A DNA stretch of 64,000 nt, taken from UHGV virus genome UHGV-0010228. One strand, given 5' to 3'. The notes beneath the pieces were generated by a model. That model saw only the letters and a program-made list of their open reading frames with translations. It was not told the origin of the DNA and made no database searches. Position numbers and translations under genes: made by a program. Below, piece after piece: positions 39,919-64,000 of the stretch (its first letter is position 1; every line of letters starts with the position of its first letter). Source of the DNA: a virus.

Positions 39919-41934
39919 ATGTCTGAATATATAATAAATGAAATCGGTAGTGCAGAGATGTCTATACCAGACGGTCTTTCAGAAGGTGATACTTTAAGAT
40001 TTAATATTACAAACTCTGATGAAGCAACTGCATATACTGGAACTATAATGAACTGGACAGTTCCTATGGACTTAGTTGTTCAGATAGATGCATATGGATC
40101 TAGAGGTTCATATGGTAACTTATATACATATGGATTAACCGATACATCTAGATCCGGTAATGGTGCACATGTTGGTGGAGTATTTAATTTATCAGCAGGC
40201 TCTGAATTATTAATATTAGTTGGTCAACATGGTAAAGATGCTATGACAGGTACAGGATCTACTAGAGATGGTGTATCTGGTTGCGGTGGTGGAGGAACAT
40301 TTGTTGTCCTTAAAACTGACGAATCAACTGGAAGTTTATTTGTTGGATCTGATACTAATGGATCTAAAGCTGCATATGGTGGATGGTATGTTTCGCCATT
40401 AGTAATTGCTGCAGGTGGCAATGGATCTAAGGATAATGGATATTCCGGAACTGGTCCCGGTAGAGGTGGTTTATCTACAACTTATACATCAAAACCTAGT
40501 TATTCATCATCATTGACAGGTGGTGGATTTGATACTGCATATGGTACAAATAATAGCAATTCATCTTCATATGGATATGGTTTATCATTCTTAAATGGTG
40601 GATTAGGATCTCAGTATGCATATAGTAGATCTAGTATGACACCTAAAGCCGGATTCGGTGGCGGTGGAGGAAACTCCGATGATGGATATGGTGGTGGAGG
40701 TGGTGGATACTACGGCGGTATCCAATCTGCTGCTGCATGCTCATATGTTTCTCCTGATGCTGAATCAGTTATTACTGGTGAGGACGATATTAATGCTGGT
40801 GATGGATATGTTATTATAACTATAATTGAAGGAGGAAAAATATATTCTCCTGAAGTATATATGAGAGATAATGGCGAGATTCATAAATATTCAGATATGA
40901 AAGTATCTGTAAATGGCGAATTAAAAACTATTAAAAACTTCTATTCTAAAATGGATGGAAAATGGGTTAAAATGGCAAGAGAAATTGTAGTATATGAAGC
41001 TGGTAAATCATGGACTCAATCTAATATAGATAGTGGAAGTTTTTATAGTGTATATAATGCTAATGGTATATGGGTAGCTTGTAGTGGTGGTAATGGTCTT
41101 TATTATTCTACAGATGGTAAAGTATGGACTCAATCTAATATAACTAATGATGCTTTTCATACTGTATATAATGCTAATGGTATATGGGTAGCAGGTAATA
41201 ATAATGGTCTATATTATTCTACAGATGGTAAAGCATGGACTCAATCTAATATAACCACTGGAGGTTTTAGACGAGTATATAATGCTAATGGCATATGGGT
41301 AGCATGTGATGCTGATGGTATTTATTATTCTATGGATGGTAAATCATGGACTAAATCTAATATGACTTATGGAACTTATCATGATGCATATAATGCTAAT
41401 GATATATGGGTAGCAGGTGGTAGTGGTAGTCTTTACTATTCTACAGATGGTAAAGTATGGACTCAATCTAATATAGATAATGGTAGTACTACCATCTTTT
41501 TCTCAGTATATAATGCCGATGATATATGGGTAGCAGGTAGTGATAATGGTCTTTATTATTCTACAGATGGTAAAGTATGGACTCAATCTAATATAGATAA
41601 TGGTAGTTTTAATACTGTATATAATGCTAATGGTATATGGGTAGCTTGTAGTGGTGGTAATGGTCTTTATTATTCTACAGATGGTAAAGTATGGACTCAA
41701 TCTAATATAGATAATGGTAATTTTAATACTGTATATAATGCTAATGGTATATGGGTAGCTTGTAGTGATGGTAATGGTCTTTATTATTCTACAGATGGTA
41801 AAGTATGGACTCAATCTAATATAGATAATGGTAATTTTAATACTGTATATAATGCTAATGGTATATGGGTAGCTTGTAGTGATGGTAATGGTCTTTATTA
41901 TTCAGAAACTAGAACAGAATATGTCAATAAATAA
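39919..41934 (+). CDS. tail fibre / receptor-binding protein. Gly-rich N-terminal domain followed by about 8-9 BNR/Asp-box-like 40-aa repeats (GLYYSTDGKVWTQSNIDNGSFNTVYNANGIWVA).
   Basis: ATG with RBS TAAGGAGGTG. The tracked ORF starts 39 nt upstream with no SD. Ends ...LYYSETRTEYVNK. Confidence 0.75.
   Translation: MSEYIINEIGSAEMSIPDGLSEGDTLRFNITNSDEATAYTGTIMNWTVPMDLVVQIDAYGSRGSYGNLYTYGLTDTSRSGNGAHVGGVFNLSAGSELLILVGQHGKDAMTGTGSTRDGVSGCGGGGTFVVLKTDESTGSLFVGSDTNGSKAAYGGWYVSPLVIAAGGNGSKDNGYSGTGPGRGGLSTTYTSKPSYSSSLTGGGFDTAYGTNNSNSSSYGYGLSFLNGGLGSQYAYSRSSMTPKAGFGGGGGNSDDGYGGGGGGYYGGIQSAAACSYVSPDAESVITGEDDINAGDGYVIITIIEGGKIYSPEVYMRDNGEIHKYSDMKVSVNGELKTIKNFYSKMDGKWVKMAREIVVYEAGKSWTQSNIDSGSFYSVYNANGIWVACSGGNGLYYSTDGKVWTQSNITNDAFHTVYNANGIWVAGNNNGLYYSTDGKAWTQSNITTGGFRRVYNANGIWVACDADGIYYSMDGKSWTKSNMTYGTYHDAYNANDIWVAGGSGSLYYSTDGKVWTQSNIDNGSTTIFFSVYNADDIWVAGSDNGLYYSTDGKVWTQSNIDNGSFNTVYNANGIWVACSGGNGLYYSTDGKVWTQSNIDNGNFNTVYNANGIWVACSDGNGLYYSTDGKVWTQSNIDNGNFNTVYNANGIWVACSDGNGLYYSETRTEYVNK
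40990..41905 (+). repeat. tandem ~120-bp coding repeats (about 7.5 units; the last three nearly identical)
   Basis: GGTCTTTATTATTCTACAGATGGTAAAGTATGGACTCAATCTAATATAGATAATGG... recurs with a period of 120 nt. It produces the spurious antisense ORF 41503..41814. Confidence 0.85.
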
Positions 41935-41952
41935 AATTGGGGGTGATATTTC

Positions 41953-42696
41953 ATGAAAATGATGAAAAGAAATAAAACTACCGGTAATCGTGAGATTATT
42001 GGTGGTAGCGTAGCACCTGCTACAATAAAAGTTGAAAATGTTGGTACTGATGTTAAGATAACAACAACTGACCAGGAAGAAACTACAGTAGCAACATTTG
42101 GTAATGGTATAAAAGTTGTAGGTACATTATCTAAAGGTGCTACTGAAATTATACTCAAACATGATCAGATAACTGAAGATAGTATTATTGAATGCTATAG
42201 TAGTGTATACAATGCTAGACCACAAGATATTGAAACTAGTAGTGGGCAGGTTAAATTAACATTTGCTGCTCAGAGTAGTGATATACAAGTTATGATATTA
42301 ATCAAAACTGTAGACATGGGTAAAGTATATCTTGATACAACAGATGCAACAGCAACTGCCAGTGATATCGCTAATGGCAAAACTGCATATGTAAATGGTA
42401 AGAAAATAAGTGGTGGGTTAGAAAACGCTGATTTAATTCATTTAGGAATAACAGACACATCAGAATTGCGCGATTTTGATGATTCAAAAGCAATTGGTGT
42501 TTTATATTCTAGTAATTATAAAATGACTTCTGATAGACTTACCTCCGGAAAATATATTGTTGATATGTCTAATACGGTTATAACTGCATATGCATCATAT
42601 GCTGCATTAGCCGAGGTTATTGGATTAACTGCAGATAAGATTGTAAAAGGCAATACTATATTAGGTATTGCTGGAACTGCAGAAGTATCATCATAA
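41953..42696 (+). CDS. fibre-module protein (N-terminal half paralogous to 42718..43080; C-terminal anchor and collar motifs TATASDIANGKTAYVNGKKISGG and ADKIVKGNTILGIAGTAE)
   Basis: RBS GGGGGTGA. 247 aa. Confidence 0.7.
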   Translation: MKMMKRNKTTGNREIIGGSVAPATIKVENVGTDVKITTTDQEETTVATFGNGIKVVGTLSKGATEIILKHDQITEDSIIECYSSVYNARPQDIETSSGQVKLTFAAQSSDIQVMILIKTVDMGKVYLDTTDATATASDIANGKTAYVNGKKISGGLENADLIHLGITDTSELRDFDDSKAIGVLYSSNYKMTSDRLTSGKYIVDMSNTVITAYASYAALAEVIGLTADKIVKGNTILGIAGTAEVSS

Positions 42697-42717
42697 CTAA
42701 TTGGTGGTGATTGTATT

Positions 42718-43080
42718 ATGAAGTTAATGAGACGAAACAAAACTACTGGTAATAGAGATGCTGTAGGTGAATATATTGATCCTGGGTATTTATCTGTTAC
42801 AACTAGTGGAACTGATATAATAATATCTACGAATAATCCTACTGGAGAAAATACTACCGCTACAGTAAGTAATGGTATTTTAGTAACTGGAAATTTAGCA
42901 GTAGGTGCAACTTCTTTAGTATTAGAAAATCCAAATATTACAACATCAAGCATGTTTGAATGTTATACGTCAAATTATAATATTCGACCTAAGAATATTA
43001 GTGTAGCTGCAGGTAAAGCTACAATAACTTTTATCGCACAAACAGAAGCAGTTACAGTATATTTACTGATAAAAGGATAA
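42718..43080 (+). CDS. small paralogue of the N-terminal domain of 41953..42696 (MKLMRRNKTTGNRD...)
   Basis: RBS GGTGGTGA. 120 aa. Confidence 0.65.
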   Translation: MKLMRRNKTTGNRDAVGEYIDPGYLSVTTSGTDIIISTNNPTGENTTATVSNGILVTGNLAVGATSLVLENPNITTSSMFECYTSNYNIRPKNISVAAGKATITFIAQTEAVTVYLLIKG

Positions 43081-43090
43081 TACATATATT

Positions 43091-43141
43091 AATTACGGTA
43101 TATTCTATATATAGAATATACCGTAATTTCTTTTTTTTTTC
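43091..43141 (+). terminator. rho-independent terminator (ATTACGGTATATTCTATAT/ATAGAATATACCGTAAT followed by T12). Identical copy at 45781..45830.
   Basis: 18-bp perfect stem plus T-run. Confidence 0.85.
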
Positions 43142-43154
43142 TATTATTATGCTA

Positions 43155-43172
43155 TCAAAACATCACAGTAAA
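43155..43172 (+). promoter_or_regulatory. conserved fibre-gene upstream motif TCAAAACATCACAGTAAA
   Basis: Family CAAAACAYCA-YRR-TAAA. Also at 46483..46500, 54941..54958 and 61111..61128, each upstream of a large fibre gene. Confidence 0.5.
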
Positions 43173-43218
43173 CTTAATGCTTTCATTAATTATTTTTTTT
43201 TTGAAAGGAGATGACAGT

Positions 43219-45759
43219 ATGGCTTGGTATGAATATCGAGGAACTACTAATGACAAAGTAATCCCTATAAATACTACAGCAACTGCTGAAGATATAGCAA
43301 CTGGTAAAACTGTATATAGTAATGGTGAAAAAATTGTTGGTAATATAGCATCGATAGGAATTAAAACATATTCCCCAGGAAAGGCAAATATTACTATACC
43401 TAAAAATTATTATTTATCCGGAAATCAGACTATAAAAGGCGATTCAAATTTAATTGCAGCTAATATTATAAAGGGAAAATCAATATTTGGTGTAACTGGA
43501 ACAACCAACGTTGTTAATTATAGAGCTGATACAAAAAACTATACTAGTAGCAGTGAGAATTGTGGCGAAGTGTACAATGGTGTGACAATACCATATATAA
43601 ATGATGCTATGTTGTTTGCGTATCCATCAGAAGCTCAAATTTCTAATAATCGATACTCATCTGGATCGAATCTATTTTTTAGTTCTCTTGGTGGTTATTT
43701 ATGGTATACTATATCATGGTATTATAGATATAACTCGGTTTATCAAAAAGCAAAATATTTACTATATGATCATACACTATCTACAGTAACTGCGATATAT
43801 GGTAATCACTTAGTTAAATTTTTTCAATATCAATATTATATTAACAATGAATCATCTTATGAATGTATTTCAACATATGACTCGAATGTATCATTTAGTT
43901 CAAATTATATATCGATGATATTGAGTGCTGATGATAAATATGTGTATATCAGCGATGTTGGAACGCCATCAACAACAACGGTATATATGGCTAATAATAA
44001 TTCTGGTAGTAGTAAAAACATTACACTCACAAATAAAATTCCATATACATTATGTAGGCCATATTATGAAGAAGAAAAAAATCTATTATTTCATAAAAGG
44101 ATTTATCTTACAGGAAGCGATTCTGCAAATGGTGTATATTATTCATATGATGGAAAAATATGGACTAAGACCAGTATATCATCAGGACAATTTAATATGT
44201 CTGCTAATGTTAAAAGTAGATTAGGATTTATCTCCGTTGGTTCTACATTATACTATTCATATGACGGTATATCGTGGTCTCAATTTTCGAATACTGTTGC
44301 AATGGGCTCTTGTCAAAAATTTGTCAGTGGTACAAATTCAGGACAAAGTATGAATGCTGCTATTGGAAGTGGTGGAAATGAAGGATTGTTATGTATCTCA
44401 CCTTTTAGTGATCTTTCATATGGTGGAGAAATTGACACTACAAACATAACAACGGGAAATTTTCATTATTTAGCGTCAAGTAGCGAATATATAATTGCAG
44501 CATCTGGTGATGATGGTACGCCTATATATTATAGTTATAATGGATATTCATGGGCACAATATGGATCAATAACTTCTTCAGTAAAATGTTTAGAATATGC
44601 TAACGAAATATTTGTATTAGCTACTACCGATGGTATGTATACAAGCAATAAACAGTGTAGTGGTTGGAAAAAAATATCTATCACTGATTCAACGATAGGA
44701 TTTGATTTTGTTTTTTATGGAACTAATAAAGTTTGGGTCGGTGGATATAAAACATTAAATTATGTTTATTACTCAACCGATAATGGTACAACTTGGACTA
44801 AATCTGATGCAATATCCGGCAGTACAGGATTTAGTTCTGGATGTTACAATAGATTTACACAATTATATCTCATAGGTAGTTCGTCAGGAAATGGAATATA
44901 TTATTCAAAAGATGGAATATCGTGGTATCCTAGTGAATTAACATCCCAAACTGTTAATAAATTTATGGTTACAAATACAAATGTTGTTGCATTGACAAAT
45001 GCTGGGGTATATTATTCACATGATGGAGTTGTATGGAATATAACAAATCTTACAAATGCCATATATACAAAGATGAGTTACATTGACGTATTACAACGTC
45101 CAATAATCGATTATGATGTTCTATATGTTAGCACAGGAAGTTCAGATAATACTAATAATGGAGTATGCATGATCGCTGGTTATAATGGATATAATGGATC
45201 ATCTTCCGGATCAATCATATGGTCAATAACTGAAAATTCATCAACATATGGAGCTATAATAGATATTATTACCGATATTGATAATCAATACATTTTTGGT
45301 CTATCTAAAAATGGATATCTGGTGGTTTATAATATACGATCAAAGACATGTGTTGCTAAATTAGTCGATTCTGCTGGTGAAATGTGTAGAATTTCATATA
45401 ACGCAGGAATAATAGCTGTTGGTTATATGTCTAATAATACAAATGTTATAATTAAGACTTTTATATTAAACTATGGAAATACAGATGGAATTAAAAATCT
45501 CATAATCAGGGACTTTACTTCAATCACAACAACATCTTCAGCGTCAGATAATCCACCAAAAATCAAAGCACTTACAATTAATAATGAGGGGATAATTAAG
45601 TTTGGATTATCAAATGGGTATATATCAGCGAGTTATATATGTACAGGTGAATTATATGGCCAAAATATGTTAACATCTGAAGCTATCACAGGTTCACTTC
45701 CAGTGCTAAATGAAGTGGGGGATATTATAGGAACTAAATATTTTAAAACATTTTATTAA
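43219..45759 (+). CDS. tail fibre protein (N-terminal anchor MAWYEY...ATGKTVYSNGEKIVGNIAS, collar NIIKGKSIFGVTGTTN, degenerate Asp-box repeats YYSYDGKIWTKTS etc.)
   Basis: ATG with RBS GAAAGGAGATGA. The tracked ORF begins 42 nt earlier. 847 aa. Confidence 0.7.
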   Translation: MAWYEYRGTTNDKVIPINTTATAEDIATGKTVYSNGEKIVGNIASIGIKTYSPGKANITIPKNYYLSGNQTIKGDSNLIAANIIKGKSIFGVTGTTNVVNYRADTKNYTSSSENCGEVYNGVTIPYINDAMLFAYPSEAQISNNRYSSGSNLFFSSLGGYLWYTISWYYRYNSVYQKAKYLLYDHTLSTVTAIYGNHLVKFFQYQYYINNESSYECISTYDSNVSFSSNYISMILSADDKYVYISDVGTPSTTTVYMANNNSGSSKNITLTNKIPYTLCRPYYEEEKNLLFHKRIYLTGSDSANGVYYSYDGKIWTKTSISSGQFNMSANVKSRLGFISVGSTLYYSYDGISWSQFSNTVAMGSCQKFVSGTNSGQSMNAAIGSGGNEGLLCISPFSDLSYGGEIDTTNITTGNFHYLASSSEYIIAASGDDGTPIYYSYNGYSWAQYGSITSSVKCLEYANEIFVLATTDGMYTSNKQCSGWKKISITDSTIGFDFVFYGTNKVWVGGYKTLNYVYYSTDNGTTWTKSDAISGSTGFSSGCYNRFTQLYLIGSSSGNGIYYSKDGISWYPSELTSQTVNKFMVTNTNVVALTNAGVYYSHDGVVWNITNLTNAIYTKMSYIDVLQRPIIDYDVLYVSTGSSDNTNNGVCMIAGYNGYNGSSSGSIIWSITENSSTYGAIIDIITDIDNQYIFGLSKNGYLVVYNIRSKTCVAKLVDSAGEMCRISYNAGIIAVGYMSNNTNVIIKTFILNYGNTDGIKNLIIRDFTSITTTSSASDNPPKIKALTINNEGIIKFGLSNGYISASYICTGELYGQNMLTSEAITGSLPVLNEVGDIIGTKYFKTFY

Positions 45760-45780: not shown

Positions 45781-45830
45781 AATTACGGTATATTCTATAT
45801 ATAGAATATACCGTAATTTCTTTTTTTTTA
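45781..45830 (+). terminator. second copy of the ATTACGGTATATTCTATAT hairpin terminator
   Basis: Identical 18-bp stem plus T9. Confidence 0.85.
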
Positions 45831-46482: not shown

Positions 46483-46500
46483 CCAAAACATCACAATAAA
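46483..46500 (+). promoter_or_regulatory. conserved fibre-gene upstream motif CCAAAACATCACAATAAA
   Basis: See 43155..43172. Confidence 0.5.
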
Positions 46501-46545: not shown

Positions 46546-49500
46546 ATGCCATGGTTTCCTACATGTGGAGGCGTTGATACATCAGACGCAAATGTAACTC
46601 CAGAAGATGTATTAGAAGGAAAAATAGTATATTCACATAATGGCCCAGTTGTGGGCACAATACCAAGTTTACCAGAAAAAACCTGGATTCCAGGACCTGA
46701 AGAACAGGTAATTCCGGGAGGACATTATATTGCAGGTACACAGACAATTAAAGGTGATCCTAACCTTTATCCAGAAAATATAGTTAAAGGTAAAACTATA
46801 TTTGGTGTAGAAGGCACAGGTATACCTGTGGAATTTAACGATCCAACATTTATTGAAAAATTGTGCGTATCAGATTTTAAAGGTAAAGTTGATTTCTCTA
46901 AAGATTCCGAATATTTCTATACTTATGGTACTTCAATTATTAATAAACATAATTCGACAACTGGAGAAGTTATATGGTCTCAATCAATATCTGATGATAC
47001 TAAAAAAATATATTCAAATTTATATATAACACCAGATGATCTTCTTATATATTATGGATCTAAAAATGGATATTTAAATTCAATAATAGCAGATTCAGGA
47101 ATTTCTCATTTAAGTGTTAAGGTATTAGATACAACAAAATCTGTTGAATATATAAAGGGTATTGAAAATTATAAAGGTTCAACATTCAGCTTATTATTAT
47201 TTGTGCCAAATACAACAGTTATTGGAAGGGTAGATTTTATTGACACGTCTACTAATAATATAGAAACAATTACTATACCATCTAGTTATTCTATCGATGT
47301 CGATGATAAGGATATCTATTATTATTGCAATTCTTCTTCTCCAAGAAAGATATGCAAGATATGTACAGATTCAGCGGATAATTATGAAATTGAAACTGGA
47401 ACTATAAATAGTTATGGAATACAACCTGATGGAAAATATTTATACACAGTAGCTAAGGTTGATAATACTACTGATAAATTATCACAGTATAATGCAGAAA
47501 CTGGTGCATTAGTACGTAGTGTGAACGTTGATGTAAACACCCGTGATAACTGCTCATTACTTATTACGGATAGTTTATCGGAATATATATATCTTCAAAA
47601 TACTAGAACTATATATAGATACTCAACTGATTTGTTGTTAAATTATGCTAATAACCCATTTTTATTTACAGATGGTACAGTGTCCAGTGCTGTTGATAGT
47701 GCTAGTGTTGATAGTAATGGAGAATATGTATATGTATCATATTTAAGTGAAGATACCTCTGAGTTGTATAAATATAAGCAGGTATTTGGATCAATATACC
47801 CATTGGAAAATCCGGATCCTTATATCAATATAGATAGAATTATTAAGAGAAAGAAAGATACTTATAAAACATATGAAACCCCAGTAGAAATCTGGGATGA
47901 TGAATATGATTCAGAAATTGACTCTATTAGTTGTACTGATGATGGTCATTATGTATACATATGCACGCAGAATAATGGATTTATAAAAATGAATTCTGTA
48001 AATAAGAAAATTATATGGTCATATAATGATGGTATGTCAGGATATGTAGTTGTAGATCATAATGATAAGTATGTATATGTAGCAACGAATAGTGCATTAA
48101 CTAAACTTGACGCATCAAATGGTAATGTTGTAATTTCATTATCAGATTATGCAAGATCTAGAACTGCTGCATATTCTATACAGAATATGACTATTACAGA
48201 TGATAATGAATATTTAGTATATATTAATAACAATAGTAGCTCTGCAAGTAGTAGTAAAATTGTTAAATTTAAAACTTCAGATATGAGTGTTAAATGGGAA
48301 AAGACACCTCATACTAATTACATTAACCAATTAGATTTAGTAAGTAAAACTGGAGATATATATTTCAATAAATCTTCTCAGATACCTATTGAAACGGATT
48401 ATATTCTTCCATTCACTGGTGGTGTAAATAATGTAGTATATTTTAATAGTAAATATTTATTATTACCTAATAAAACTTTCATTACTAATAGTGAAACTAA
48501 TACAACTGAGTTTACTTATTACTTAGGCGATACTCTTAATATAGCGTATATGGAAAAGCACACTATTAGTACTGATGGGATGAATACTAATTTTAGCGAT
48601 TATACGATAACCAAAATAGTTGCATCTTCATATGTGTGTATTATATATGTAAAAGGCATTGACAATGCATCATTAACTGAAAGTGAAACTTCATTAAATA
48701 AATATTATTATACTTATGATGGCGTAAATTGGAGTGAGGGTTCATTTGGTTTATACTGCCCAACGTCAAATATTATTAATTGTAGTAATACATTTATATA
48801 TTCGGCATCGGATAAGAGTACATATAATAAATTATTCTCATCATATGATGGAATAAATTGGACTGAGAATACTAATTATACAGATACATATACTAATGGT
48901 ACTGTATGGGGATTAGGATATGTCAATTCAAGATATTTATTAGTATCTAATATATTACAATATTCTACAGATTTTAAAACTTTTAGTACTGCAACTATTG
49001 CTAGTTTGCCTAGTGAAACTGCTGTTGGTGAGAATTTTGCTAATAAATATGGAGAAATTCACTGTGTTTATATATATAGCAGATATTATTTAGCTTGTGC
49101 TGATGGAATATATTATTCGTCTGATTTAAATACTTGGACAAAATGTACATTTACTTATCCGACTAGTGCGGATTTTCCTTCCGAATTATCTTACCCATTA
49201 TTAATGACCAACTATAGTAATTATATATATATTATAGAATCTGCTAGTGGTAATACAGCTGAAATATCGAATTATGTAAGATCAATTTATATTACTTCAA
49301 CATCACAGACATCTTTCAATGTAACTAATATTAAAGCTGCACCATTATTAAGTGAAACATCATCAACATCAACATTATTTGTAACTGGTGGATGTGTAAG
49401 TGATAATGCTATTGCCGGTCTTTATTATTCTACAGATGGTAAAACATGGACTCAGTCTAATCTAACAACTGGACTTTTTAGCGATGTGTGTAATTTTGAT

Positions 49501-52500
49501 ATATGGGTAGCAGGTAGTAGTGATGATGGACTTTATTATTCTATAGATGGTAAAACGTGGACTCAATCTAATATAACAACTGGTCATTTTAGTGCTGTAT
49601 ATAATACTACTGGCATATGGATAGCAGGTAGTAGTATTTTTGATAGTAAAGGTCTTTATTATTCTACAAATGGTAAAACATGGTTTCAATCTAATATAAC
49701 AAGCGGAGGATTCTATACTATAAATTATGCTAATGATATATATCTAGCTTGTGGGGAAGGACTTTATTATTCTACAGACGGTAAAACATGGGAAAAGACT
49801 ACTGTGAGTGGAGGATATCTGACTAGTGGGGGTTTTAGAAATGCATATTACGCTGATGCTATGTGGGTAGTGTGTAGTAATGATGACTATTGCTCTTATT
49901 ATTCTAAAGATGGTAAAGCGTGGGCGCAATGTGAACCAGCTGTCGAAGAGGATGTATTTTGTAATATAGTATATTATTCTAATAAGAGTATATGGGTAGC
50001 TGGTAGTGAGCAAAGTAATGGATTGCAATACTCTACAAATGGTATGTCGTGGACTCAGTCTAATATAAGCACTGGAATTATTAGAACGGTGTGTTATGGT
50101 AATAATATAGTTATAGCTGGTGGATATAACACTGGTATATATTATTCTACAGATGGTAAAACGTGGACTCAATCTAATACAACCACTGGATCTTTTAATT
50201 TACTTTATTATTATGAGGATATATATATAGCTGTTAGTGGCAATAATAAAGGTCTTTATTATTCTACAGATGGTAAAACATGGACTCAATCTAATATAAC
50301 TAGTGGAAGTTTTATGACTTCTATAGGTGAATCATACCACCCAGTTACAACAAATAACAACAATAATTACATCTACTGTAATAGTAGATTAGCATCTTTC
50401 CCTGCGGTTACTGCTGATGATACTCATAGTAATACTAAATATAGTATTGGATCATTAGAGAATTCTAAAATTCAACAATTAACTTATCAGGATACTAGAA
50501 CTACTAATACAACATATTACGGATTATCTACATTTAATAATTCAACAGCAATATTATTAGGTCAATTCGAAGGGGCGAATCAAATTACTGATAATTATGC
50601 ATATTCTACAGATAGTGGAGCAACATGGACTGGTGCGCATATGCCTAAAAAAGGCGAATGGATACATGTCGGAAAATTAATGAGTAAATATATTGCAGTA
50701 TGTAATAGTAGTAATAATTTAGCAATATATGAATCGTCAGATGGGAAATCATGGTCACAGGGATCTATAACAAATTCCAATGGTAACGCATTAGCAAATA
50801 ACATGATATCTATAAATAACGATGAAAATGATGTTAAAATAAAAGTAATAACTAGTCCACTTATATCATCATTTGCAATAATCGTTTATACAACAATTGG
50901 CATAAATGTTGAAGGATATTATGTTTCATCTTCATTAAGCACTGGAAGTGCATTTAAAGTACAAAATTTCTCATCAAATATGACATCAACCCCATTATGT
51001 GCTATAAACGATACTTCACAAAAATGTATGTTTTTAGGTTGGAGTAATAATGGTAAATTTATGTACAGTGATGATATGCTATTATCACTCATGAATGGTG
51101 ATTACTATACTGAAGTTACATCTTCAGAATCAATATCAAACTGGGATATGTATTCTGAAATAACAGGTGTAAAACTTTCAGATACTCAATATTTAGTATC
51201 GATGCAACCAACTTCATCATCAAGCTTAGTTAAAGTAGGATTGCTCGATACAAGTGCAAATACTTTAACATTTAGAGCGTCAACGTGGTATAATGGTAGA
51301 TTTGTTGCTCCAGCAAATGGTAAGTTATATGCACTTAATACTTATAGTGTAAATGGAAATAGTGGTGGAGGTAAATTTACATCTATAACAAACTATGACA
51401 CAACTAATACTGTAAAAGATGATGTTCTTCCGTCAGATCTATCATCATCTATAAGTAAAAATGATAAAACATATACTACATTATGCTCTTCAGGTACAAA
51501 TCTTATTACAGTTATAAATGGTGAACCATATGCATATTATACTAAGAACCCATTAGTAATTTCTGGTGGTGATGATAGATATATTAGAGCTATAGATTTC
51601 TTAACTGGAAATACAATATGGTCATTCTCATTATCATATGCTGCAAATGGTATATATGTAAGTGATGATAAGAAGTTTGTATATGCTACAGTAAATGGCA
51701 ATTCATCATCAGCTAATCTTTATAAATATAATATTAATGCTACTAATTTATCTTCAATGAAGTATTCTACTAATTCATATTCTAGTGCAATATTCGGTAA
51801 TGGAGATAAGATATTTACTGTTAAAAGTTCTAATGGTGGTATATTAGCCGCATATGATCCTGAATATCTTACAAATGATTATTCACTTACAGGTGCTAAT
51901 GATACATCAACTGGACAGGAATATGGTAGATGTTTAACTTATGATTCTGCTGGTGATTATATATATGCTGGTACTTATATGAATACTGGCAAAGGCCATT
52001 TACATAAATATAAATTAAAAGAAATTGAATATGAAAAGATAGCAAGGGTATATAAGACTACTACAACAGGAGAAGATACTGAGGGAAAGGTATGGACTCA
52101 ATCTAATATAAATAGTGGAGATTTTTATACAGTGTATTATGGTAATAGTATATGGGTAGCCGGCAGTATTAGCGGTAAAGGTCTTTATTATTCTACAAAC
52201 GGTAAAGTATGGACTCAATCTAATATAACTAGTGGAGATTTTAGATCTGTATATAATGCTAATGGTATATGGGTAGCTGCTAGTGATAGTGATAATGGTC
52301 TATATTATTCTACAGATGGTAAAGTATGGACTCAATCTAATATAAATAGTGGATATTTTTATACAGTGTATTATGATAATAGTATATGGGTAGCTTGTAG
52401 TGGTAAAGGTATATTTTATTCTACAGATGGTAAATCATGGACTCAATCTAATATAAATAGTGGAGATTTTTATACAGTGTATAATGCTAATGGTATATGG

Positions 52501-54704: not shown

Positions 54705-54763
54705 TATAATACCTCCTTATATTATATAATATTAATATAATGTATAACAAAAAAAAAACAAAT

Positions 54764-54940: not shown

Positions 54941-54958
54941 TCAAAACACCATGATAAA
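54941..54958 (+). promoter_or_regulatory. conserved fibre-gene upstream motif TCAAAACACCATGATAAA
   Basis: See 43155..43172. Confidence 0.5.
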
Positions 54959-54997: not shown

Positions 54998-57900
54998 TTG
55001 GCATGGTATACAGCAGTTAATGCACATGATACATCAGATGCTACTGCATCTGATAATGATATTAGAAAAGGTAAAACTGCATATGTTAATAATAAATTAG
55101 TTACTGGTACAATGCCAGAAAAAGCTGCTGCTACATATACACCATCAACGAAAGATCAAACTATAACTAGTGGAGTATATTTAGCCGGAGATCAGACTAT
55201 AAAAGGAGATTCTAATCTCATATCTGATAATATAGTTAGAAAAAAATCAATATTTGGAGTTGAAGGAAATCAAATTCCTATAGAATTTAATGATCAAGTA
55301 AAGATGCTGAGTGGGATTACTCACGAAACTATAACCTATGATAATGAAAAAATATTAACATCTTTTAATAAAAATACCAATGCCGCTGTAATAATGAGCG
55401 CAATTAGATTAAATGATGAAAATTATAATGTAACGAAAGTTTATTCATATAAGATATTATTTACATATTTGTCATTAGATACATATGATGTAGTATCATC
55501 ATCAACATTCATTATTTGTAGATCTAAAATTGATGGTTATGCTGATAGTGATACTGATGAAATAATACAATCTAGAAATAACTTTACTACTACAAATTTC
55601 TTTCCTGTAACTGAAAGACCAATGATAACTAGTATTTCATTAGAAAATGATGGAATAGTACTTGTATCTATGAGAGGAATCAGTTCATACATTGGATCTG
55701 GTGCTAATTTTCAAAATATAGCAAAAATCGATCTGAAAAACGGAAAATTGATATCAACAATGTCAATTCTTGATGATTATGTAAATCATATATCAAATGC
55801 AGTTAATTGTGTGAAAATGATTGATGATAATATTTATATAGATGGTCCTGCAACACAGCCGGGATTAAATTATATAACAGTTGATGGTGCATATTCAATA
55901 TCGCCATACTCATCGGCAATTAATGGATATATATTATATGAATATCATAATGATATAAGCACTGAACCTATACAATATTATGTTGTAACCGAACAATATA
56001 ATTCATCGTTAGGTATATATGAACCAAAACTATCTGAGAAAAAACAGATCCCAGCATATGGTTGGTGTATGGATAGATACTCTAGAATTATGCTTACTGA
56101 TTATCATAATGCTAATGTCTGGGACTATATATGTTATTTTAACGGATATTACTATATAATATTTGGTTTGGCATATGATGATCATTTATTAAGAACTACA
56201 GATTTTTCTAATTTTGATTATATTAGCTTTACTGATGATTTTAAAATTTCATTTTACAGTAATCGAACTGCCATGGTATCTGCTCTTATTTCAGATACAG
56301 TAAATAATAAATTATTATTTTTATGCACTGACGATCATCGTTTTGCTATATATGATGGTACTACTAATAAAACATCATATTTAGCCTTACCATATGATAA
56401 CTATAATACAGGATATAATGGATTTACAACACTTAGAAGTGCGGCATTTGACTATAATAAAACCTTCGTATTTCATTTTGGACAAAATAGTGCAAATTCA
56501 AAAGATTATCCAGATCCAACGAATAACTATATTTTCGTGACAACAAATTATGGATCGTCATACACAGTTATTGACATTAAAGATATCTTTTCAGAAGCTA
56601 TACAAAATCAGCTAAGCGGTTATTCGATTAATTATGGCATTGGTCTTGGATATATAAATGAAGCTTTTTATATATTTTCAACAGCTAGAAATTCTAATTC
56701 ATCGAGTTATAATAGCTATGTTATAATATCTAAATCTATTGATGGACTTAATTGGGAAACACCTACATTAGTATATAATAGCGACACATATTATACAACA
56801 CATTCAAAAAAAAGTATTGCCGGTGATAGTAATAATACTATAGTAATCATAACCACATCAGAACGAAATAATGATGATAGTACAAGAGTAGGATATATAT
56901 ATTCAAGGGATAATGGGGTATCATGGTCATCAATAAATACATTAAGATCTTCTTTTACTGCGAATGGTACTATCGCAACCTCAATTGCATATGGTAATGG
57001 AAAATTTATTGTTACAATTAGCTGTTCTGATGATGATTATGTTAGAATATACTATAGTACAAATGGGTCGTCGTGGTCAAGCACATCTTTATCAATCAAT
57101 AGTGATAAAGAGTGTTGTTATAGAGTTTCGTATTGTAATGATCGCTTTATAATGATGCCATCATGGGGCTATAGATTTTTTTATAGCACAGATGGTATAT
57201 CTTGGACATCATCTGCTGCGCTATATAATAGAGGATCATGCAAAATAACTATAAAACCATATATGCTGACTGATTCTAGATACTCATTGTATTTTAACAA
57301 TTCTTCATATTCTTCACAATATCTTGAAAAGATATTATACATTGTACCGGACTATTGTTCGAGTCTTGGTTGGAGCAGTTATGGTATAAATAAAACGATA
57401 GGAACTCTTGATGGCTCATCGTGGTATTTGTATAAACGTAATGATTCTTTTTCTATTTCAGCTCCTGATTGGTTATCTGATACTTACTATCCTAATAAAA
57501 GTTACGAATGTGATGATGAGAAATCCTTTACAAATAATATTTATATTGGCATGAGTTATGGTACAGACCCAACCTCATCAATATATGGAAAGTACCCATT
57601 TTACACAACTAATGGGCGACAGATATATGCATGGACAGCAATGATTTCTGTGCTTGCTCAGCTTAAATCAATTACTACCAATATGGTTGATTATTTTTGT
57701 GTATTCTATAGCACATATTATAATAAATATTTAATTATACTTACTATATATGATAAACCGAATTCAAAACGTGTTACGTATATGTACTATACCACATCTA
57801 TCGGAACTGCAACTGTAAATAGTTACAATTTTGATTCTGCCGATTTTCACGACAATTTTGTTTCTGCTATAGATATGTCCACTCTTAGTATGTATGAAGA

Positions 57901-59269
57901 ATTAGATATTGGGAAAATTGTCTTTTATAGTAAAACTGGGCTCGCAATTTTTAAATTTAATGCCAATGGAACAGCTATTGATAGTGTATCAATCACAAAA
58001 TTATCTTTTACTGATAATACTATATATAAATACAACAATAAATATTATACATATATTTCATCAAATGATAATATTAAAATTTATGAATCGTCAAATCTTT
58101 CAGATTGGACAACAAAGACTATTTCAGAATGTAATATTTTTAAAATAATAAATCAAGGGGTTGCCTCTTCCAATATTGGAAAGAGTGCTGAAAATTATAG
58201 TTATATGACTCTTGGCAACATTCGCTTATCATTAGGGCTTATTCCATTTAGTGATAAGGGTTATGGTGGCGATGAAATTAACAGTAGTTATAGCAAATCG
58301 ATATCGTCTCCTGGCATATATTTATATGACAGTAGTTCTAATATGGAATATTTAATGTGTATAGATGCTAATTTAATACGAATAGTTCGATCTCAAAAAA
58401 TGAATAATATTGGTGGTGCGCTAGCATCTAATAATTTAGTGCTGTTACATAGTCAAAAAAATAGTAAAAAGGTGCTATACTATATTCATCCAAAGTCTAA
58501 ATCGGGGTATCGAACTTCATTATATAAACTAAATGATGATAGTGATTCATACACAATCATCGACGATTCCCCAAACGATTATATTGATGGCGATGTTATT
58601 GATATATTACAAATATCTGAAACTAGATATATTACAGTAAATAAGCGCAGATTATTATCTACAGCTTTAGGTGTAGAATATGCCAGACCTATGGAATATC
58701 TTATTAATTATTATACTATAAATGAGGGTAAGGCAGATACAAAACAAAATACTATCGCTATATCTGTAAATCCTACTAATTATACATTTACATATTTACA
58801 TAGTATATATTCTAATTCATATATATATACAACATTCTTAAGAAGTGATAATAGGATGATACGATATACTCAAACAAATGATATTGAATCATCATTGACC
58901 GATATACCAGTATCATCTATATCAGGCGTTTCAACATTCGGTGGAGCACTTGTTACTTCGGATTATATATATATAATACGCACAAATAATATTTTACAAA
59001 AGCTATATCGAGGAACCACGTCAATTGGATCATCAATATGGAAATTTACAATTCCACAGACAAATACTAATGAATCATTTATTAAAATTGATATAGATTC
59101 TAGGGGAAATATATGGTGTATTTCACAATATAGAACTGTAATATTAGTAGAGTCAGTAGGCTCTGCATATCTCAAATCTAATAAAACTAATGATCCTGCA
59201 TATATTGCAATAAATAACAGGTCTGAAGAATATAATGATCTATATGATGTTTTTTATATATATGATTAA
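54998..59269 (+). CDS. giant (about 1424 aa) tail fibre/adhesin. Anchor (M)AWYTAV...RKGKTAYVNNKLVTGTMP, collar NIVRKKSIFGVEGNQIP, degenerate Asp-box repeats (YIYSRDNGVSWSS, IYYSTNGSSWSS, FFYSTDGISWTSS). Probable TTG start.
   Basis: RBS GAAAGGAG 7 nt before the TTG. Its N-terminus is homologous to the ATG-initiated MAWYEY and MPWFP paralogues. The tracked ATG at 54917 has no SD and lies inside a hairpin. Confidence 0.7.
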   Translation: MAWYTAVNAHDTSDATASDNDIRKGKTAYVNNKLVTGTMPEKAAATYTPSTKDQTITSGVYLAGDQTIKGDSNLISDNIVRKKSIFGVEGNQIPIEFNDQVKMLSGITHETITYDNEKILTSFNKNTNAAVIMSAIRLNDENYNVTKVYSYKILFTYLSLDTYDVVSSSTFIICRSKIDGYADSDTDEIIQSRNNFTTTNFFPVTERPMITSISLENDGIVLVSMRGISSYIGSGANFQNIAKIDLKNGKLISTMSILDDYVNHISNAVNCVKMIDDNIYIDGPATQPGLNYITVDGAYSISPYSSAINGYILYEYHNDISTEPIQYYVVTEQYNSSLGIYEPKLSEKKQIPAYGWCMDRYSRIMLTDYHNANVWDYICYFNGYYYIIFGLAYDDHLLRTTDFSNFDYISFTDDFKISFYSNRTAMVSALISDTVNNKLLFLCTDDHRFAIYDGTTNKTSYLALPYDNYNTGYNGFTTLRSAAFDYNKTFVFHFGQNSANSKDYPDPTNNYIFVTTNYGSSYTVIDIKDIFSEAIQNQLSGYSINYGIGLGYINEAFYIFSTARNSNSSSYNSYVIISKSIDGLNWETPTLVYNSDTYYTTHSKKSIAGDSNNTIVIITTSERNNDDSTRVGYIYSRDNGVSWSSINTLRSSFTANGTIATSIAYGNGKFIVTISCSDDDYVRIYYSTNGSSWSSTSLSINSDKECCYRVSYCNDRFIMMPSWGYRFFYSTDGISWTSSAALYNRGSCKITIKPYMLTDSRYSLYFNNSSYSSQYLEKILYIVPDYCSSLGWSSYGINKTIGTLDGSSWYLYKRNDSFSISAPDWLSDTYYPNKSYECDDEKSFTNNIYIGMSYGTDPTSSIYGKYPFYTTNGRQIYAWTAMISVLAQLKSITTNMVDYFCVFYSTYYNKYLIILTIYDKPNSKRVTYMYYTTSIGTATVNSYNFDSADFHDNFVSAIDMSTLSMYEELDIGKIVFYSKTGLAIFKFNANGTAIDSVSITKLSFTDNTIYKYNNKYYTYISSNDNIKIYESSNLSDWTTKTISECNIFKIINQGVASSNIGKSAENYSYMTLGNIRLSLGLIPFSDKGYGGDEINSSYSKSISSPGIYLYDSSSNMEYLMCIDANLIRIVRSQKMNNIGGALASNNLVLLHSQKNSKKVLYYIHPKSKSGYRTSLYKLNDDSDSYTIIDDSPNDYIDGDVIDILQISETRYITVNKRRLLSTALGVEYARPMEYLINYYTINEGKADTKQNTIAISVNPTNYTFTYLHSIYSNSYIYTTFLRSDNRMIRYTQTNDIESSLTDIPVSSISGVSTFGGALVTSDYIYIIRTNNILQKLYRGTTSIGSSIWKFTIPQTNTNESFIKIDIDSRGNIWCISQYRTVILVESVGSAYLKSNKTNDPAYIAINNRSEEYNDLYDVFYIYD

Positions 59270-59840: not shown

Positions 59841-59883
59841 AAAAAAAAGAAAACGAGAGGTAAGCATTGCTTACCTCTCTTAT
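59840..59883. terminator. bidirectional terminator (A10, then GAGAGGTAAGC-att-GCTTACCTCTC)
   Basis: 11-bp GC-containing stem between convergent genes. Confidence 0.8.
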
Positions 59884-59888
59884 ATTTG

Positions 59889-61016: not shown

Positions 61017-61110
61017 AGTTTTATCCTCCTTATAATAACTATGTAGCTTTAACTTTTCAATATAATAATATATTTATTAAAAAAAAACAAATTTCGGTAT
61101 ATTATCCACC

Positions 61111-61128
61111 CCAAAACACGATAATAAA
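61111..61128 (+). promoter_or_regulatory. conserved fibre-gene upstream motif CCAAAACACGATAATAAA
   Basis: See 43155..43172. Here it directly abuts the RBS. Confidence 0.45.
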
Positions 61129-61145
61129 ACGGAGGTGATTAAATT

Positions 61146-64000
61146 ATGGCAGATGAACCTGTAATGTATGATAAAGTATATTATATCCATACTAAATTAA
61201 CAGAAAAATTTCCTATTATTCCATACCGTACAGTTGGTATGATAGATACTGATGATGCTGTATACTGTATGTGCCAAGTAACATCATCAACAGGAAATTA
61301 TGAGATATATAAATTAGATATTCCAAGTGATGGATTAACTCCGATATATGATAGAACCTTAACTTGGAAATCTGCCGCAGTTTTAAGTTATTCAGATTAT
61401 GGTTATATCTATCATTATCAAAAGCCTAATTATTATAGAATGAACGATAAAGATGCTGATTATAAATATTTTATTGTAACCGGTAATAAATTATATTTTA
61501 GCGATGACCCTGTTGGTCCTTTTACTAAAGCAACTGGAGATTTTCTGACTAGTACTGCTCCATCAAATATAGTTTATGCATATTCTAAATATTGTATAAT
61601 TTATCAATATAGATTATACTCTTCAACTGATGGAGTTATTTGGGAAATAGCTAATGCAAATCTCTATGATAAGACAAATTATCAGGGATTATTTATACTC
61701 AATAATCAATTAGTTGCTGCAGTTGTTGGTCTTGAATATTTATATATATTAATCGAAACTACTGGATCGTTACCTGGAACGTGGAAAGAGTATAAATATT
61801 TAAACGACTCTGTTGAAGGTGCATATAAAGGTAATTATATAGAAAGCGTTAATGATTTACTACTTAATGAAATATGTGGTGAAGATATAATTGTAATTAG
61901 TAAAATGTCAAATAATTATTTTAGTTATCAATTTCACCTGGTAAATTTTAAAGATGGATTACCAACAGGTAGTAGCGGGGAGAATTTTTATTCACCACAT
62001 GTTACAGATGCTAATAATGGGTTTTCATTAATTCATTCATCTAAAAGTTATAAGAATGAATATTTCTTATGTTCAGAATCTAAATTGAATGATGTTAAAC
62101 CTGCATTATCAATATATTCAAAATTAGATGCACATAACCAATTTACAGATGTAAGTACTGATACATCTAGTTCTAGTAATAATCTATATACGTTTCAGTT
62201 AGATACGCCTACAGGATTTCATGTATCTAAGAATTGTGATTATGTAATATCATATCCAACTGATTCATCGGAATATATTAAAGAAAAACGAATTATTGAT
62301 GTTGATCCATATATATTTGTAGCTTGTAGTTATAGTGATAAAGGTCTTTATTATTCTAATGATGGTAAATCATGGATTCAATCTAATATAACTAATGGTA
62401 ATTTTCATAATGTATATAATGCTAATGGTATGTGGATAACATGTAGTTATGATAATAATGGTGGTAAAGGACTATATTATTCTACAGATGGTAAAATATG
62501 GACTCAATCTAATATAACTAGTGGAATATTTCATACTATATATAATGCTAATGGCATATGGGTAGCTGGTAGTTATAGTGATAAAGGTCTTTATTATTCT
62601 ACAGATGGTAAAGTATGGACTCAATCTAATATAACCAGTGGTAATTTTAATGATGTATATAATGCTAATGGTATATTTGTAGCATGTAGTTATAGTAGTA
62701 AAGGTCTTTATTATTCTACTGATGGTAAAACATGGACTCAATCTAATATAACTAGTGGTAGTTTTTATGATGTATATAATGCTAATGGCATATGGATTGC
62801 AGGTAGTTATGGTGATAAAGGTCTATATTATTCTACAGATGGTAAAACATGGACTCAATCTAATATAACTAGTGGTAATTTTAGTGGCATATATAATGCT
62901 AATGGCATATGGGTAGCTGGTAATTATAGTAATGGTCTTTATTATTCTACAGATGGTAGAGTATGGACTCAATCTAATATAACCAGTGGTAATTTTAGAC
63001 GAGTATATAATGCTAATGGCATATGGGTAGCTGGTAATTATAGTAATGGTCTTTATTATTCTACAGATGGTAGAGTATGGACTCAATCTAATATAACTAG
63101 TGGTAGTTTTTATGATGTATATAATGCTAATGGCATATGGATTGCAGGTAGTAATAAAGGATTATACTATTCTACAGACGGTAGATCATGGACTCAATCT
63201 AATATAACTAGTAGTAATTTTATTGACATATATAGTACAGTTAATATTATGGTTGGAGGTATTGGTAGTAATGGGCTTTATTATTCCACAGATGGTAAAT
63301 CGTGGATTCAATCTAATATAACTAGTAGATATTTTGAGAATATATATAATGCTAATGGTATATGGGTAGCTTGTAGTGGTAATGGTATTTATTATTCTAC
63401 AGACGGTAAATCATGGAGTCGTGTTTTAAACAAAAGTATTATTAATTCTATATATAATGCTAATGGTATATGGGTAGCTTGTAGTGATAATCATGAAGGT
63501 ATATTCTATTCTACAGATGGTAAAGTATGGACTCAATCTAATATAGATGAGGGATATTTTTATATTGTATATAGTGCTAATGGTATATGGGTAGCCGGTA
63601 GTTCTAATAATATTCTTCCTGGTGGTCTATTCTATTCTACAGATGGTAAAGTATGGACTCAATCTAATTTACATGATGATGCTTTTCATACTGTGTATAA
63701 TGCTAATGGTATATGGGTAGCCGGTAGTTGTAGTAAAGGACTATATTATTCTACAGATAGTAAAACATGGACTCAATCTAATATAACTAGTGGATATTTT
63801 CATACTGTATATAATGCTAATGGTATATGGGTAGCTTGTAGTAGATATGGTCTTTATTATTCTACAGATGGTAAAACATGGACTCAATCTAATATAACTA
63901 GTGATGATTTTAATACTGTATATTATGCTAATGGTATATGGGTAGCTTGTAGTTATAGTAATAATGGTCTATATTATTCTACAGATGGTAAAGTATGGAC
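61146..64000 (+). CDS. 3'-partial tail fibre protein (>951 aa). A distinct N-terminal domain (MADEPVMYDKVYY...), then at least 14 BNR/Asp-box-like 40-aa repeats running off the window edge.
   Basis: RBS ACGGAGGTGA. The frame was checked by eye and has no stop up to 64000. It is absent from the ORF track only because there is no stop in the window. Confidence 0.7.
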   Translation, partial: MADEPVMYDKVYYIHTKLTEKFPIIPYRTVGMIDTDDAVYCMCQVTSSTGNYEIYKLDIPSDGLTPIYDRTLTWKSAAVLSYSDYGYIYHYQKPNYYRMNDKDADYKYFIVTGNKLYFSDDPVGPFTKATGDFLTSTAPSNIVYAYSKYCIIYQYRLYSSTDGVIWEIANANLYDKTNYQGLFILNNQLVAAVVGLEYLYILIETTGSLPGTWKEYKYLNDSVEGAYKGNYIESVNDLLLNEICGEDIIVISKMSNNYFSYQFHLVNFKDGLPTGSSGENFYSPHVTDANNGFSLIHSSKSYKNEYFLCSESKLNDVKPALSIYSKLDAHNQFTDVSTDTSSSSNNLYTFQLDTPTGFHVSKNCDYVISYPTDSSEYIKEKRIIDVDPYIFVACSYSDKGLYYSNDGKSWIQSNITNGNFHNVYNANGMWITCSYDNNGGKGLYYSTDGKIWTQSNITSGIFHTIYNANGIWVAGSYSDKGLYYSTDGKVWTQSNITSGNFNDVYNANGIFVACSYSSKGLYYSTDGKTWTQSNITSGSFYDVYNANGIWIAGSYGDKGLYYSTDGKTWTQSNITSGNFSGIYNANGIWVAGNYSNGLYYSTDGRVWTQSNITSGNFRRVYNANGIWVAGNYSNGLYYSTDGRVWTQSNITSGSFYDVYNANGIWIAGSNKGLYYSTDGRSWTQSNITSSNFIDIYSTVNIMVGGIGSNGLYYSTDGKSWIQSNITSRYFENIYNANGIWVACSGNGIYYSTDGKSWSRVLNKSIINSIYNANGIWVACSDNHEGIFYSTDGKVWTQSNIDEGYFYIVYSANGIWVAGSSNNILPGGLFYSTDGKVWTQSNLHDDAFHTVYNANGIWVAGSCSKGLYYSTDSKTWTQSNITSGYFHTVYNANGIWVACSRYGLYYSTDGKTWTQSNITSDDFNTVYYANGIWVACSYSNNGLYYSTDGKVW
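62320..64000 (+). repeat. tandem ~120-bp coding repeats (at least 14 units), near-identical to those in genes 39919 and 46546
   Basis: Periodic GGTCTTTATTATTCTACAGATGGTAAA(R)(Y)ATGGACTCAATCTAATATAAC... It produces the spurious antisense ORFs 62472..62741 and 62823..63086. Confidence 0.85.

Follow-up and report, generated by a model that had tools for sequence, protein, structure and literature searches.

Beta-propeller receptor-binding proteins (RBPs), BNR propellers in phage structural proteins, and jumbo phages with many fibres are already known. In the Staphylococcus phage phi11, the five-bladed propeller of the baseplate RBP Gp45 has been proposed to bind N-acetylglucosamine on wall teichoic acid (PMC4901313), and the summary of phiKZ gp131 in the same paper describes a C-terminal seven-bladed propeller at the baseplate periphery that is suspected of binding a receptor. 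The Klebsiella jumbo phage phiKp24 has 14 tail fibres, in which N-terminal attachment and branching modules are joined to variable C-terminal specificity domains, and a broad host range (PMC9700779). In this study we analyzed a window of 64,000 nucleotides (nt), the whole stretch under consideration, from the virus genome UHGV-0010228, and found that more than 30 kb of this phage is devoted to a series of fibre-like genes with propeller domains. We regard it as probable, though well short of certain, that this region is a fibre module of the adsorption apparatus, in which the propellers, anchored by a common protein module, act multivalently as lectin-like receptor-binding heads.

Each of the described systems shares some properties with this locus. 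Ycf48 (HCF136), the photosystem II (PSII) assembly factor, resembles the window propeller in sequence (E 5e-9 in a phmmer search of PDB sequences), in its four-stranded blades of about 40 amino acids (aa), and in carrying an Asp-box where strand C turns into strand D; it is a non-enzymatic binding scaffold. The window propeller differs in having eight blades rather than seven, a shorter Asp-box, near-identical blades, and a phage-fibre context to which the PSII role does not apply. Gp45 of phi11, with its relatives in P68 and 80alpha, is similar in that a propeller serves as the carbohydrate-binding part of an RBP on a Gram-positive host, but it has five blades, no Asp-box, a triple-helical stem in place of the module described here, and one RBP per phage instead of six or more; no sequence similarity between Gp45 and the window propeller was found. 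According to that summary, gp131 comes from a jumbo myovirus that also falls in the broad phiKZ/AR9 assemblage and includes a propeller, but one of seven blades in a single copy whose function is likewise unproven, and it gave no tblastn match at E<=1e-5. The phage phiKp24, like PhiK64-1 and RaK2 with their hyperbranched systems, is a jumbo myovirus with many fibres, but its fibres are beta-helix depolymerases directed at a capsulated Gram-negative host, whereas those described here are propellers, for which branching would be conjecture. DUF6242_C (PF25852) and the BamI-type propellers of Bacteroidota are represented by faint precomputed matches on g39919, g46546, a homologue of g61146 and many other homologues, and BFVD matches are named DUF6242, but all of these matches are faint or far below cut-off.

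Six open reading frames (ORFs) carry the blades, at the coordinates given in an initial annotation of the DNA:

31695..33509, plus strand: g31695, 604 aa; an internal anchor-type module at aa 45-175 (nt 31827-32219), then a degenerate propeller at aa 173-577 (nt 32211-33425)
39919..41934, plus strand: g39919, 671 aa; a glycine-rich domain (nt 40084-40827), then a canonical eight-bladed propeller at aa 360-663 (nt 40996-41907)
43219..45759, plus strand: g43219, 846 aa; an anchor (nt 43219-43503), a degenerate propeller at aa 305-624 (nt 44131-45090), then a C-terminal region of its own
46546..53007, plus strand: g46546, 2153 aa; an anchor (nt 46546-46830), an orphan region with a PQQ_2/BamB-like stretch (nt 47941-48132), degenerate blades at about aa 720-880, propeller 1 at aa 958-1260 (nt 49417-50325), then another orphan region followed by propeller 2 at aa 1844-2153 (nt 52075-53004)
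54998..59269, plus strand: g54998, 1423 aa, TTG start; an anchor (nt 54998-55282) and a divergent BNR-like segment at about nt 56723-57235, the rest being orphan
61146..64000, plus strand: g61146, cut by the window end; 390 orphan residues at the N terminus, followed by at least 15 canonical blades (nt 62343-64000)

The repeated unit is 37-44 aa long (GLYYSTDGKxWTQSNITSGxFxxVYNANGIWVAG). A profile built from 29 canonical units (consensus GLYYSTDGKVWTQSNITSGSFNTVYNANGIWVAGSSSN; significance at an independent E-value, i-E, below 0.01) identified 56 significant blades: 6 in g31695, 8 in g39919, 7 in g43219, 18 in g46546, 2 in g54998 and 15 in g61146. About 10 weaker matches, including 2 in g54998 and those that bring g31695 to 9, raise the total to about 65, so that the figure of more than 60 copies put forward in the initial annotation is about right if degenerate copies are counted. 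A loose regular expression for the Asp-box gave 51 matches, all on the plus strand and all inside the six ORFs, and none in the three minus-strand frames. Whole-propeller profile scores were 922 bits for g61146, 776 for g46546, 474 for g39919, 132 for g31695, 113 for g43219 and 27 for g54998; by this measure the propeller family appears robust in five of the ORFs, with g54998 having only a short divergent BNR-like stretch. At the DNA level, Tandem Repeats Finder also detected the arrays, with a period of 114/117 nt and 77-88% matches.

The canonical arrays occur in multiples of eight blades: 8 in g39919, 8 + 8 in g46546, and 16 in g61146 once the extension described below is included. Because an independent ENA assembly (ERZ27286939) reproduces the fibre region at 99-100% identity, the region is not an assembly artefact, although blade counts differ in two genes. 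This k=141 short-read assembly has one blade (38 aa) fewer in g39919 (L001 2042-3943 versus window 39919-41934) and three blades (115 aa) fewer in g61146 (L112 6524-9418 versus window 61146-64000). The difference probably reflects short-read collapse of near-identical repeats rather than real copy-number variation, because only the window's counts are multiples of eight. When the three missing blades are added back, contig L112 implies a full-length g61146 of about 1079 aa with 16 blades, forming two propellers, and a tail of about 100 aa. Past the window's 3' end the same contig (9713-14647) encodes an 82-aa ORF and then a giant gene, called at 2167 aa, in which 10 or more blades are significant; the array therefore runs beyond position 64000. 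The tally for the phage is at least five canonical propellers and several degenerate ones, in at least seven genes.

An AlphaFold2 (AF2) model of the C-terminal 324 aa of g39919 is an eight-bladed beta-propeller (predicted local distance difference test, pLDDT, 85.7; predicted template modelling score, pTM, 0.83) with eight four-stranded blades of about 38 aa each. Secondary structure assigned by DSSP places FxxVYNAN in strand A, GIWVAG in strand B, GLYYS in strand C, TDGKxW in the turn and TQ in strand D, so that the Asp-box-type motif lies in the C-D (3-4) hairpin of each modelled blade, as in BNR repeats. The modelled ring is closed by a "velcro" in which the N-terminal KSWTQ (D) strand pairs with the closing GLYYSE strand at the propeller's C terminus. 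The top Foldseek matches are the eight-bladed Tako8, Fbw7 and BamB and the seven-bladed Ycf48. The core of the box, S-T-D-G-K-x-W, is one residue short of the canonical S-x-D-x-G-x-T-W, as the initial annotation had noted, and the HMMER alignment to Ycf48 puts its gap exactly there (stdg.kvw versus TDGGDTW); the 8-residue form is retained in a few degenerate copies, such as YYSEDNGKTW and YYSTDNGTTW. Taken together, the sequence and model evidence supports the earlier proposal that the repeats form beta-propellers of the BNR/Asp-box kind, although the Pfam families BNR (PF02012), BNR_2 (PF13088) and PSII_BNR did not reach threshold on the canonical arrays.

Scans of the propeller proteins against Pfam, PHROG and NCBIfam gave no blade family above threshold; NCBIfam BamI_Bacteroidota matched below threshold at the level of single repeats. 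The initial annotation had also seen YVTN-type repeats in the giant gene g46546, a suggestion that did not hold up: TIGR02276 had no match at E<=0.1 in the eight proteins scanned, and only PQQ_2 (PF13360) reached its gathering score, marginally and in a single stretch (aa 466-529; 29.8 versus 27.6 bits), which is the sole support for a propeller of a second type. PDB matches of this stretch to BamB were weak (E 0.01-0.3), and aa 96-705 of g46546, the "YVTN/PQQ" region, had no homologues in a collection of 5.8 billion proteins. For the degenerate propeller regions of g31695, g43219 and g54998, phmmer against the PDB returned nothing useful, and g54998 had no PDB sequence matches. Matches to CyaY, MksE and PerRB were rejected as artefacts of repeats or composition, with no passing stretch.

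The same scans bear on whether the propellers might be enzymes, that is, BNR-type glycoside hydrolases (sialidase, GH74 or F510_1955-like) serving as capsule or cell wall depolymerase spikes. Phage endosialidases are BNR propellers, jumbo phages with multiple depolymerases exist (phiKp24, with its 14 fibres, is an example), and NCBIfam F510_1955 glycosylhydrolase gave sub-threshold matches to g61146 (E 4e-19), g43219 (E 1e-12) and g31695 (E 1e-6), as did BNR_2 to g54998 and to no other protein (25.0 bits versus a cut-off of 31.4, E 1.4e-5). These matches, however, are far under the curated cut-offs (69 versus 175 bits), as a shared repeat motif would yield; the canonical blades are near-identical, whereas an asymmetric catalytic site normally needs blade-specific residues; and the closest solved relatives, Ycf48 and BamB, are non-enzymatic binding scaffolds. 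We therefore consider an enzymatic role unlikely. A lectin-like head with repeated sites is favored because the eight blades are near-identical and rich in Trp, Tyr and Asn, a pattern that suggests one putative sugar site per blade or inter-blade cleft, as in the lectins tachylectin-2, AAL, RSL and PLL. By analogy with the phi11 Gp45 model, we favor glycopolymer binding by the propellers.

Receptor-binding fibres are the best reading of these genes because their homologues sit at tail-fibre positions and because the anchor recurs in other tail modules. Homologues proved to be numerous, so that the description of the system as unusual was an overstatement. A word-indexed search with the propeller domain gave 665 matches, and an exhaustive search gave 439 cluster representatives at E<=1e-30, 2667 at 1e-10 and 7763 at 1e-3, including other giant multi-propeller proteins, 3000-6400 aa long, in which as many as 16 stretches matched. 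In IMG/VR an alignment query confirmed at least 121 stretches, with a mode of eight blades per gene and one 246-kb contig with at least four propeller genes. At the fold level 323 viral structures in BFVD match, and several bear names such as tail fiber, baseplate wedge, tail collar and BNR repeat; a tblastn search with the propeller returned one weak match. Close relatives among species-representative genomes all belong to gut Firmicutes (Erysipelotrichaceae, Acutalibacteraceae, Eubacteriales, Roseburia and Senimuribacter).

The genomic settings of these homologues are informative. In an Emergencia prophage the gene for a propeller protein of 347 aa comes after those for the tape measure, Baseplate_J and Mu gp48 and before those for holin and amidase; in a podovirus-like contig the propeller is fused to Mtd_N; and in a 59-kb phage the propeller gene lies beside genes for collagen-like and XkdV_N proteins. 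In the Actinomycetia phage DSL-LC01 (OQ999401.1, 108221-126390) a Ycf48-like propeller lies among collagen-like proteins and a giant glycine-rich protein. The propeller is labelled "photosynthesis system II assembly factor" and the glycine-rich protein "ALK tyrosine kinase receptor"; this pair of domains is also found in g39919, and the product names are probably annotation transfers from domain matches. The N terminus of g39919 (for which an alternative in-frame ATG at 39880 is possible) is not an anchor but a glycine-rich domain of the ALK_LTK_GRD type (Pfam, 27.2 bits versus a cut-off of 24.5), and the protein matches PHROG 22713 (E 3e-21).

Within the window the fibre array lies after genes for the tail sheath, the tube and the baseplate hub and is accompanied by two PHROG tail-fibre matches (g25858 and g38871), which places it in a tail/baseplate module. 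The other genes of this setting are as follows:

3017-5338: large terminase (TerL)
9080-10945: tail sheath
10966-11898: tube-like protein
15703-17274, minus strand: T4-type baseplate hub
33957..35744, plus strand: g33957, 595 aa, Tyr/Asn-rich; a divergent anchor-type N terminus (MAFYRC...DISNSTG..DVL) and no blades; converges on g35787c
35787..37649, minus strand: g35787c, 620 aa; paralogous to g33957 only in the first 31 residues and the promoter region
37910-38734, plus strand: g37910, a helical Lys/Glu-rich protein
38871..39896, plus strand: g38871, 341 aa, tail-fibre-like; directly upstream of g39919
41953..42696, plus strand: g41953, 247 aa; an anchor-type module as its C-terminal half (aa 120-247); PHROG 13589, E 2e-9
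53694-54704, minus strand: g53694c, a helical Lys/Glu-rich protein

The match of g38871 is to PHROG 295, "tail fiber protein" (E 2e-5), with a sub-threshold Pfam Phage_fiber_2 repeat (E 0.0026); g33957 has no Pfam, PHROG or NCBIfam match. The proteins might instead be displayed on the virion surface away from the tail: as whiskers, decoration adhesins or head fibres, they would attach the particle to mucus, flagella or biofilm matrix and not to the primary receptor. The relatives AR9 and PBS1 come from a group of jumbo phages whose appendages are elaborate, g25858 also matches a "head decoration protein" PHROG, and the number and size of the proteins are above the usual load of one baseplate. 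In smaller phages, however, the homologues fill the distal tail-fibre slot between the baseplate and lysis genes, and the fusion to Mtd_N likewise points to the tail, so that placement elsewhere on the particle seems improbable.

The anchor, like the propeller, is a recurrent module. Its consensus spans about 95 aa (DTSDATAxxDIxxGKTAYVNGxKxTG ... TYTPxxxxQTIxxGxYLxGxQTIKGDxNLxxxNIxxGxxIFGVxGT), and copies align in 8 window proteins, in agreement with the shared anchor motif of the initial annotation: five are clear, those of g33957 and g35787c are divergent, and that of g29788 is partial. The clear copies are N-terminal in g43219, g46546 and g54998 and internal or C-terminal in g31695 and g41953, which share 39% identity over 123 aa by BLASTP. 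Apparent TTG starts occur in two genes of the fibre region, g29788 and g54998; the TTG start of g54998 restores an M-A-W-Y N terminus conserved with g43219. Homologues of the anchor (n = 143) are mostly proteins of about 130 aa, and the one inspected is flanked by a Prophage_tail (Tal) gene on its upstream side and by lysis genes on its downstream side; tblastn found two unannotated human-faecal phage contigs. AF2 models the anchor with a pLDDT of 77. A shared N-terminal module followed by unrelated downstream parts is a fibre-type architecture, in which docking by the anchor would be the natural role.

Outside the blades and the anchor no similarity was detectable among the giant proteins. 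The genes had been called paralogous, which is correct for the blades and the anchor but does not extend to the remaining parts, and the fibre genes are mosaics rather than simple paralogues. On a jumbo-size contig of another ENA assembly (ERZ27271029, contig k141_307246, 231,893 bp) a 172-aa tandem-anchor protein, 58% identical to the anchor of g54998, lies beside DUF6273 proteins instead of propellers, which suggests that the same anchor may be used with different heads in another large phage.

Four of the fibre genes are preceded by a 17-nt promoter-like element, CAAAACAYNNNNNTAAA, which occurs 4 times in the window versus 0.07 expected, and only 32-61 nt upstream of these genes:

43156..43172, plus strand: CAAAACATCACAGTAAA, promoter-like, 17 nt, 61 nt upstream of g43219
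46484..46500, plus strand: CAAAACATCACAATAAA, promoter-like, 17 nt, upstream of g46546
54942..54958, plus strand: CAAAACACCATGATAAA, promoter-like, 17 nt, upstream of g54998
61112..61128, plus strand: CAAAACACGATAATAAA, promoter-like, 17 nt, upstream of g61146

The element fits the AR9 late-promoter consensus AACA-N6-TA/G (PMC5312081). Its identification as a general late promoter of the AR9 type was dropped, since it is missing before other structural genes, and we treat it only as an element shared by these cassettes. A 38-nt perfect palindrome followed by a T-run, AATTACGGTATATTCTATATATAGAATATACCGTAATT, is present in identical copies at 43091-43128 and 45781-45818, on either side of g43219; these terminator-like palindromes appear to make g43219 a discrete cassette.

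Such independent cassettes might be expected if the proteins were not virion components at all, but were secreted or displayed on the infected cell, for superinfection exclusion or envelope manipulation, or were selfish repeat genes under weak selection. Non-structural genes are interspersed in the array, and the ratio of nonsynonymous to synonymous variation (pN/pS) among blades is high overall (0.72). The conserved columns, however, are clearly constrained (pN/pS 0.37; the value of 2.1 in the variable columns is circular, those columns having been picked for being variable), the anchor and the propeller both recur in tail modules elsewhere, and no signal peptide or membrane feature turned up, although no search aimed at them was made. 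A role outside the virion is, in our judgment, quite improbable.

Two long inverted repeats raise the further question of a programmed host-range switch, either an invertible segment of the Mu G or P1 C type or a diversity-generating retroelement (DGR). The first (33789-34048 / 37558-37817; 260 nt, 98%) covers the promoter region and first 31 codons of g33957 and g35787c, convergent and otherwise unrelated Tyr/Asn-rich genes in a 25% G+C island, and each arm holds a 53-nt near-perfect palindrome. The second (37851-38076 / 54538-54763; 226 nt, 90%) covers the promoter and N terminus of g37910 and g53694c and brackets 16.5 kb with five fibre-like genes. One short-read assembly breaks exactly inside the 226-nt pair (ENA contigs k141_808322 and k141_489957 both end within its arms), but scaffold L111 of a second assembly spans the repeat in the window's orientation. 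Each arm carries a complete promoter region and start codon, so that inversion would regenerate the same genes, and on this ground the invertible segment was rejected as a functional switch. The DGR, which the Mtd_N of one homologue might recall, was rejected on the mismatch spectrum and the lack of a reverse transcriptase among window ORFs >=300 aa: mismatches among blades at least 85% identical are not restricted to adenine, and 23% involve no A. As no invertase was found among these ORFs either, the host-range switching envisaged in the initial annotation now looks very improbable.

The blades themselves carry a different record of change. At the DNA level neighbouring blades can be 100% identical, as the final three of g39919 are, and blades of different genes as much as 97%; identity ranges from 78 to 100% within and between genes, blades are common to at least four genes, and identical residues use the same codon about 90% of the time. 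Because the DNA is near-identical and so many codons are shared, these data indicate that blade duplication and/or gene conversion has been recent, a concerted evolution visible at the DNA level. The variable amino acid columns (10, 17, 18, 20, 22 and 23) fall in the D-to-A loop and at the start of strand A. One could imagine the blade cassettes, of 114-117 nt, as a recombinational reservoir from which conversion and unequal crossing-over assemble chimeric eight-site lectin propellers with new combinations of D-to-A loops. We advance this idea tentatively and hold it to be rather unlikely; if true, it would allow host-range diversification without a reverse transcriptase or an invertase.

A model consistent with the evidence for receptor-binding fibres can be outlined. 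The anchor of about 95 aa would dock the proteins to the baseplate or to one another, and the propellers would be the distal binding heads, each presenting a near eight-fold repeated surface. These heads may bind the repetitive cell wall glycopolymers of a Gram-positive gut host with high avidity, and many different heads would make the apparatus multivalent, perhaps giving it a broad host range, in a way that would resemble the branched 14-fibre system of phiKp24. In this model tandem duplication and gene conversion, acting both inside single genes and from gene to gene, drive blade evolution, with amino acid variation focused on the D-to-A loop. The fibre and receptor-binding role already envisaged in the initial annotation is well supported by the positions of homologues in other phages; that the proteins are incorporated into the virion of this phage, that they bind carbohydrate and that they do so multivalently is what we infer.

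Several observations weigh against this interpretation. No Pfam or PHROG tail-fibre model matches the propeller proteins themselves. The AF2 run for g39919 used a single sequence and was confident in only one of five models, and the model of the anchor, the putative docking module, had no Foldseek matches in the PDB. Much of the giant proteins is orphan sequence with no assigned fold. The array is broken by genes that do not look structural (a DHH phosphoesterase and the two helical Lys/Glu-rich proteins), and neither the sheath and tube genes nor the other structural genes have the 17-nt element upstream.

Judged from its gene sequences, the source of the window is an uncultured low-GC jumbo myovirus of the phiKZ/AR9 assemblage, distant kin of BpSp, AR9 and PBS1. 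This placement follows from the kinship of its TerL and from the recurrence of the window's proteins on ENA contigs, the longest of 235 kb. TerL is closest to that of two jumbo Bacillus phages, vB_BpuM-BpSp (35% identity) and AR9/PBS1 (32%), with jumbo phages of Staphylococcus next, so that the phage is AR9/PBS1-like and not crAss-like. The window has about 30% G+C, no tRNA genes, and genes for phiKZ-type "virion structural" proteins. No close relative was found among GenBank phages or in IMG/VR: megablast of 21 kb of the window against 50,697 phage genomes gave no matches, and IMG/VR scans with single proteins (propeller and TerL) yielded no close relative, the propeller relatives having required the alignment query.

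Two minus-strand genes stand apart from the structural ones. A PPK1-like polyphosphate kinase (17799-19415; PP_kinase_C, E 2e-30; PP_kinase_C_1, E 5e-26) lies in the middle of the structural region and is an unusual auxiliary gene in a phage, and the DHH/DHHA1 phosphoesterase gene (PHROG 4771; 59889-61016) splits the array between g54998 and g61146.

What is new here is an uncharacterized family with an eight-bladed propeller, a shortened Asp-box and almost perfectly repeated blades, and its expansion within a single phage, where seven or more genes hold no fewer than five canonical propellers besides several degenerate ones and the DNA shows concerted evolution. Since the fold, the concept and the family are widespread in phages, the locus is a large and rapidly evolving example, not a new kind of system.

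Most phages of gut Firmicutes have not been cultured, and annotation is missing for the bulk of their receptor-binding proteins. The two modules described here, the eight-bladed propeller with a short Asp-box and the anchor of about 95 aa (DTSDATA...IFGVxGT), can be used for annotating metagenomic tail fibres, and both would help to correct misnamings, of which "photosystem II assembly factor" is one and "ALK tyrosine kinase receptor" another. The phage is an extreme case and a good system for studying how binding domains made of repeats become diverse and whether having many heads broadens the host range.

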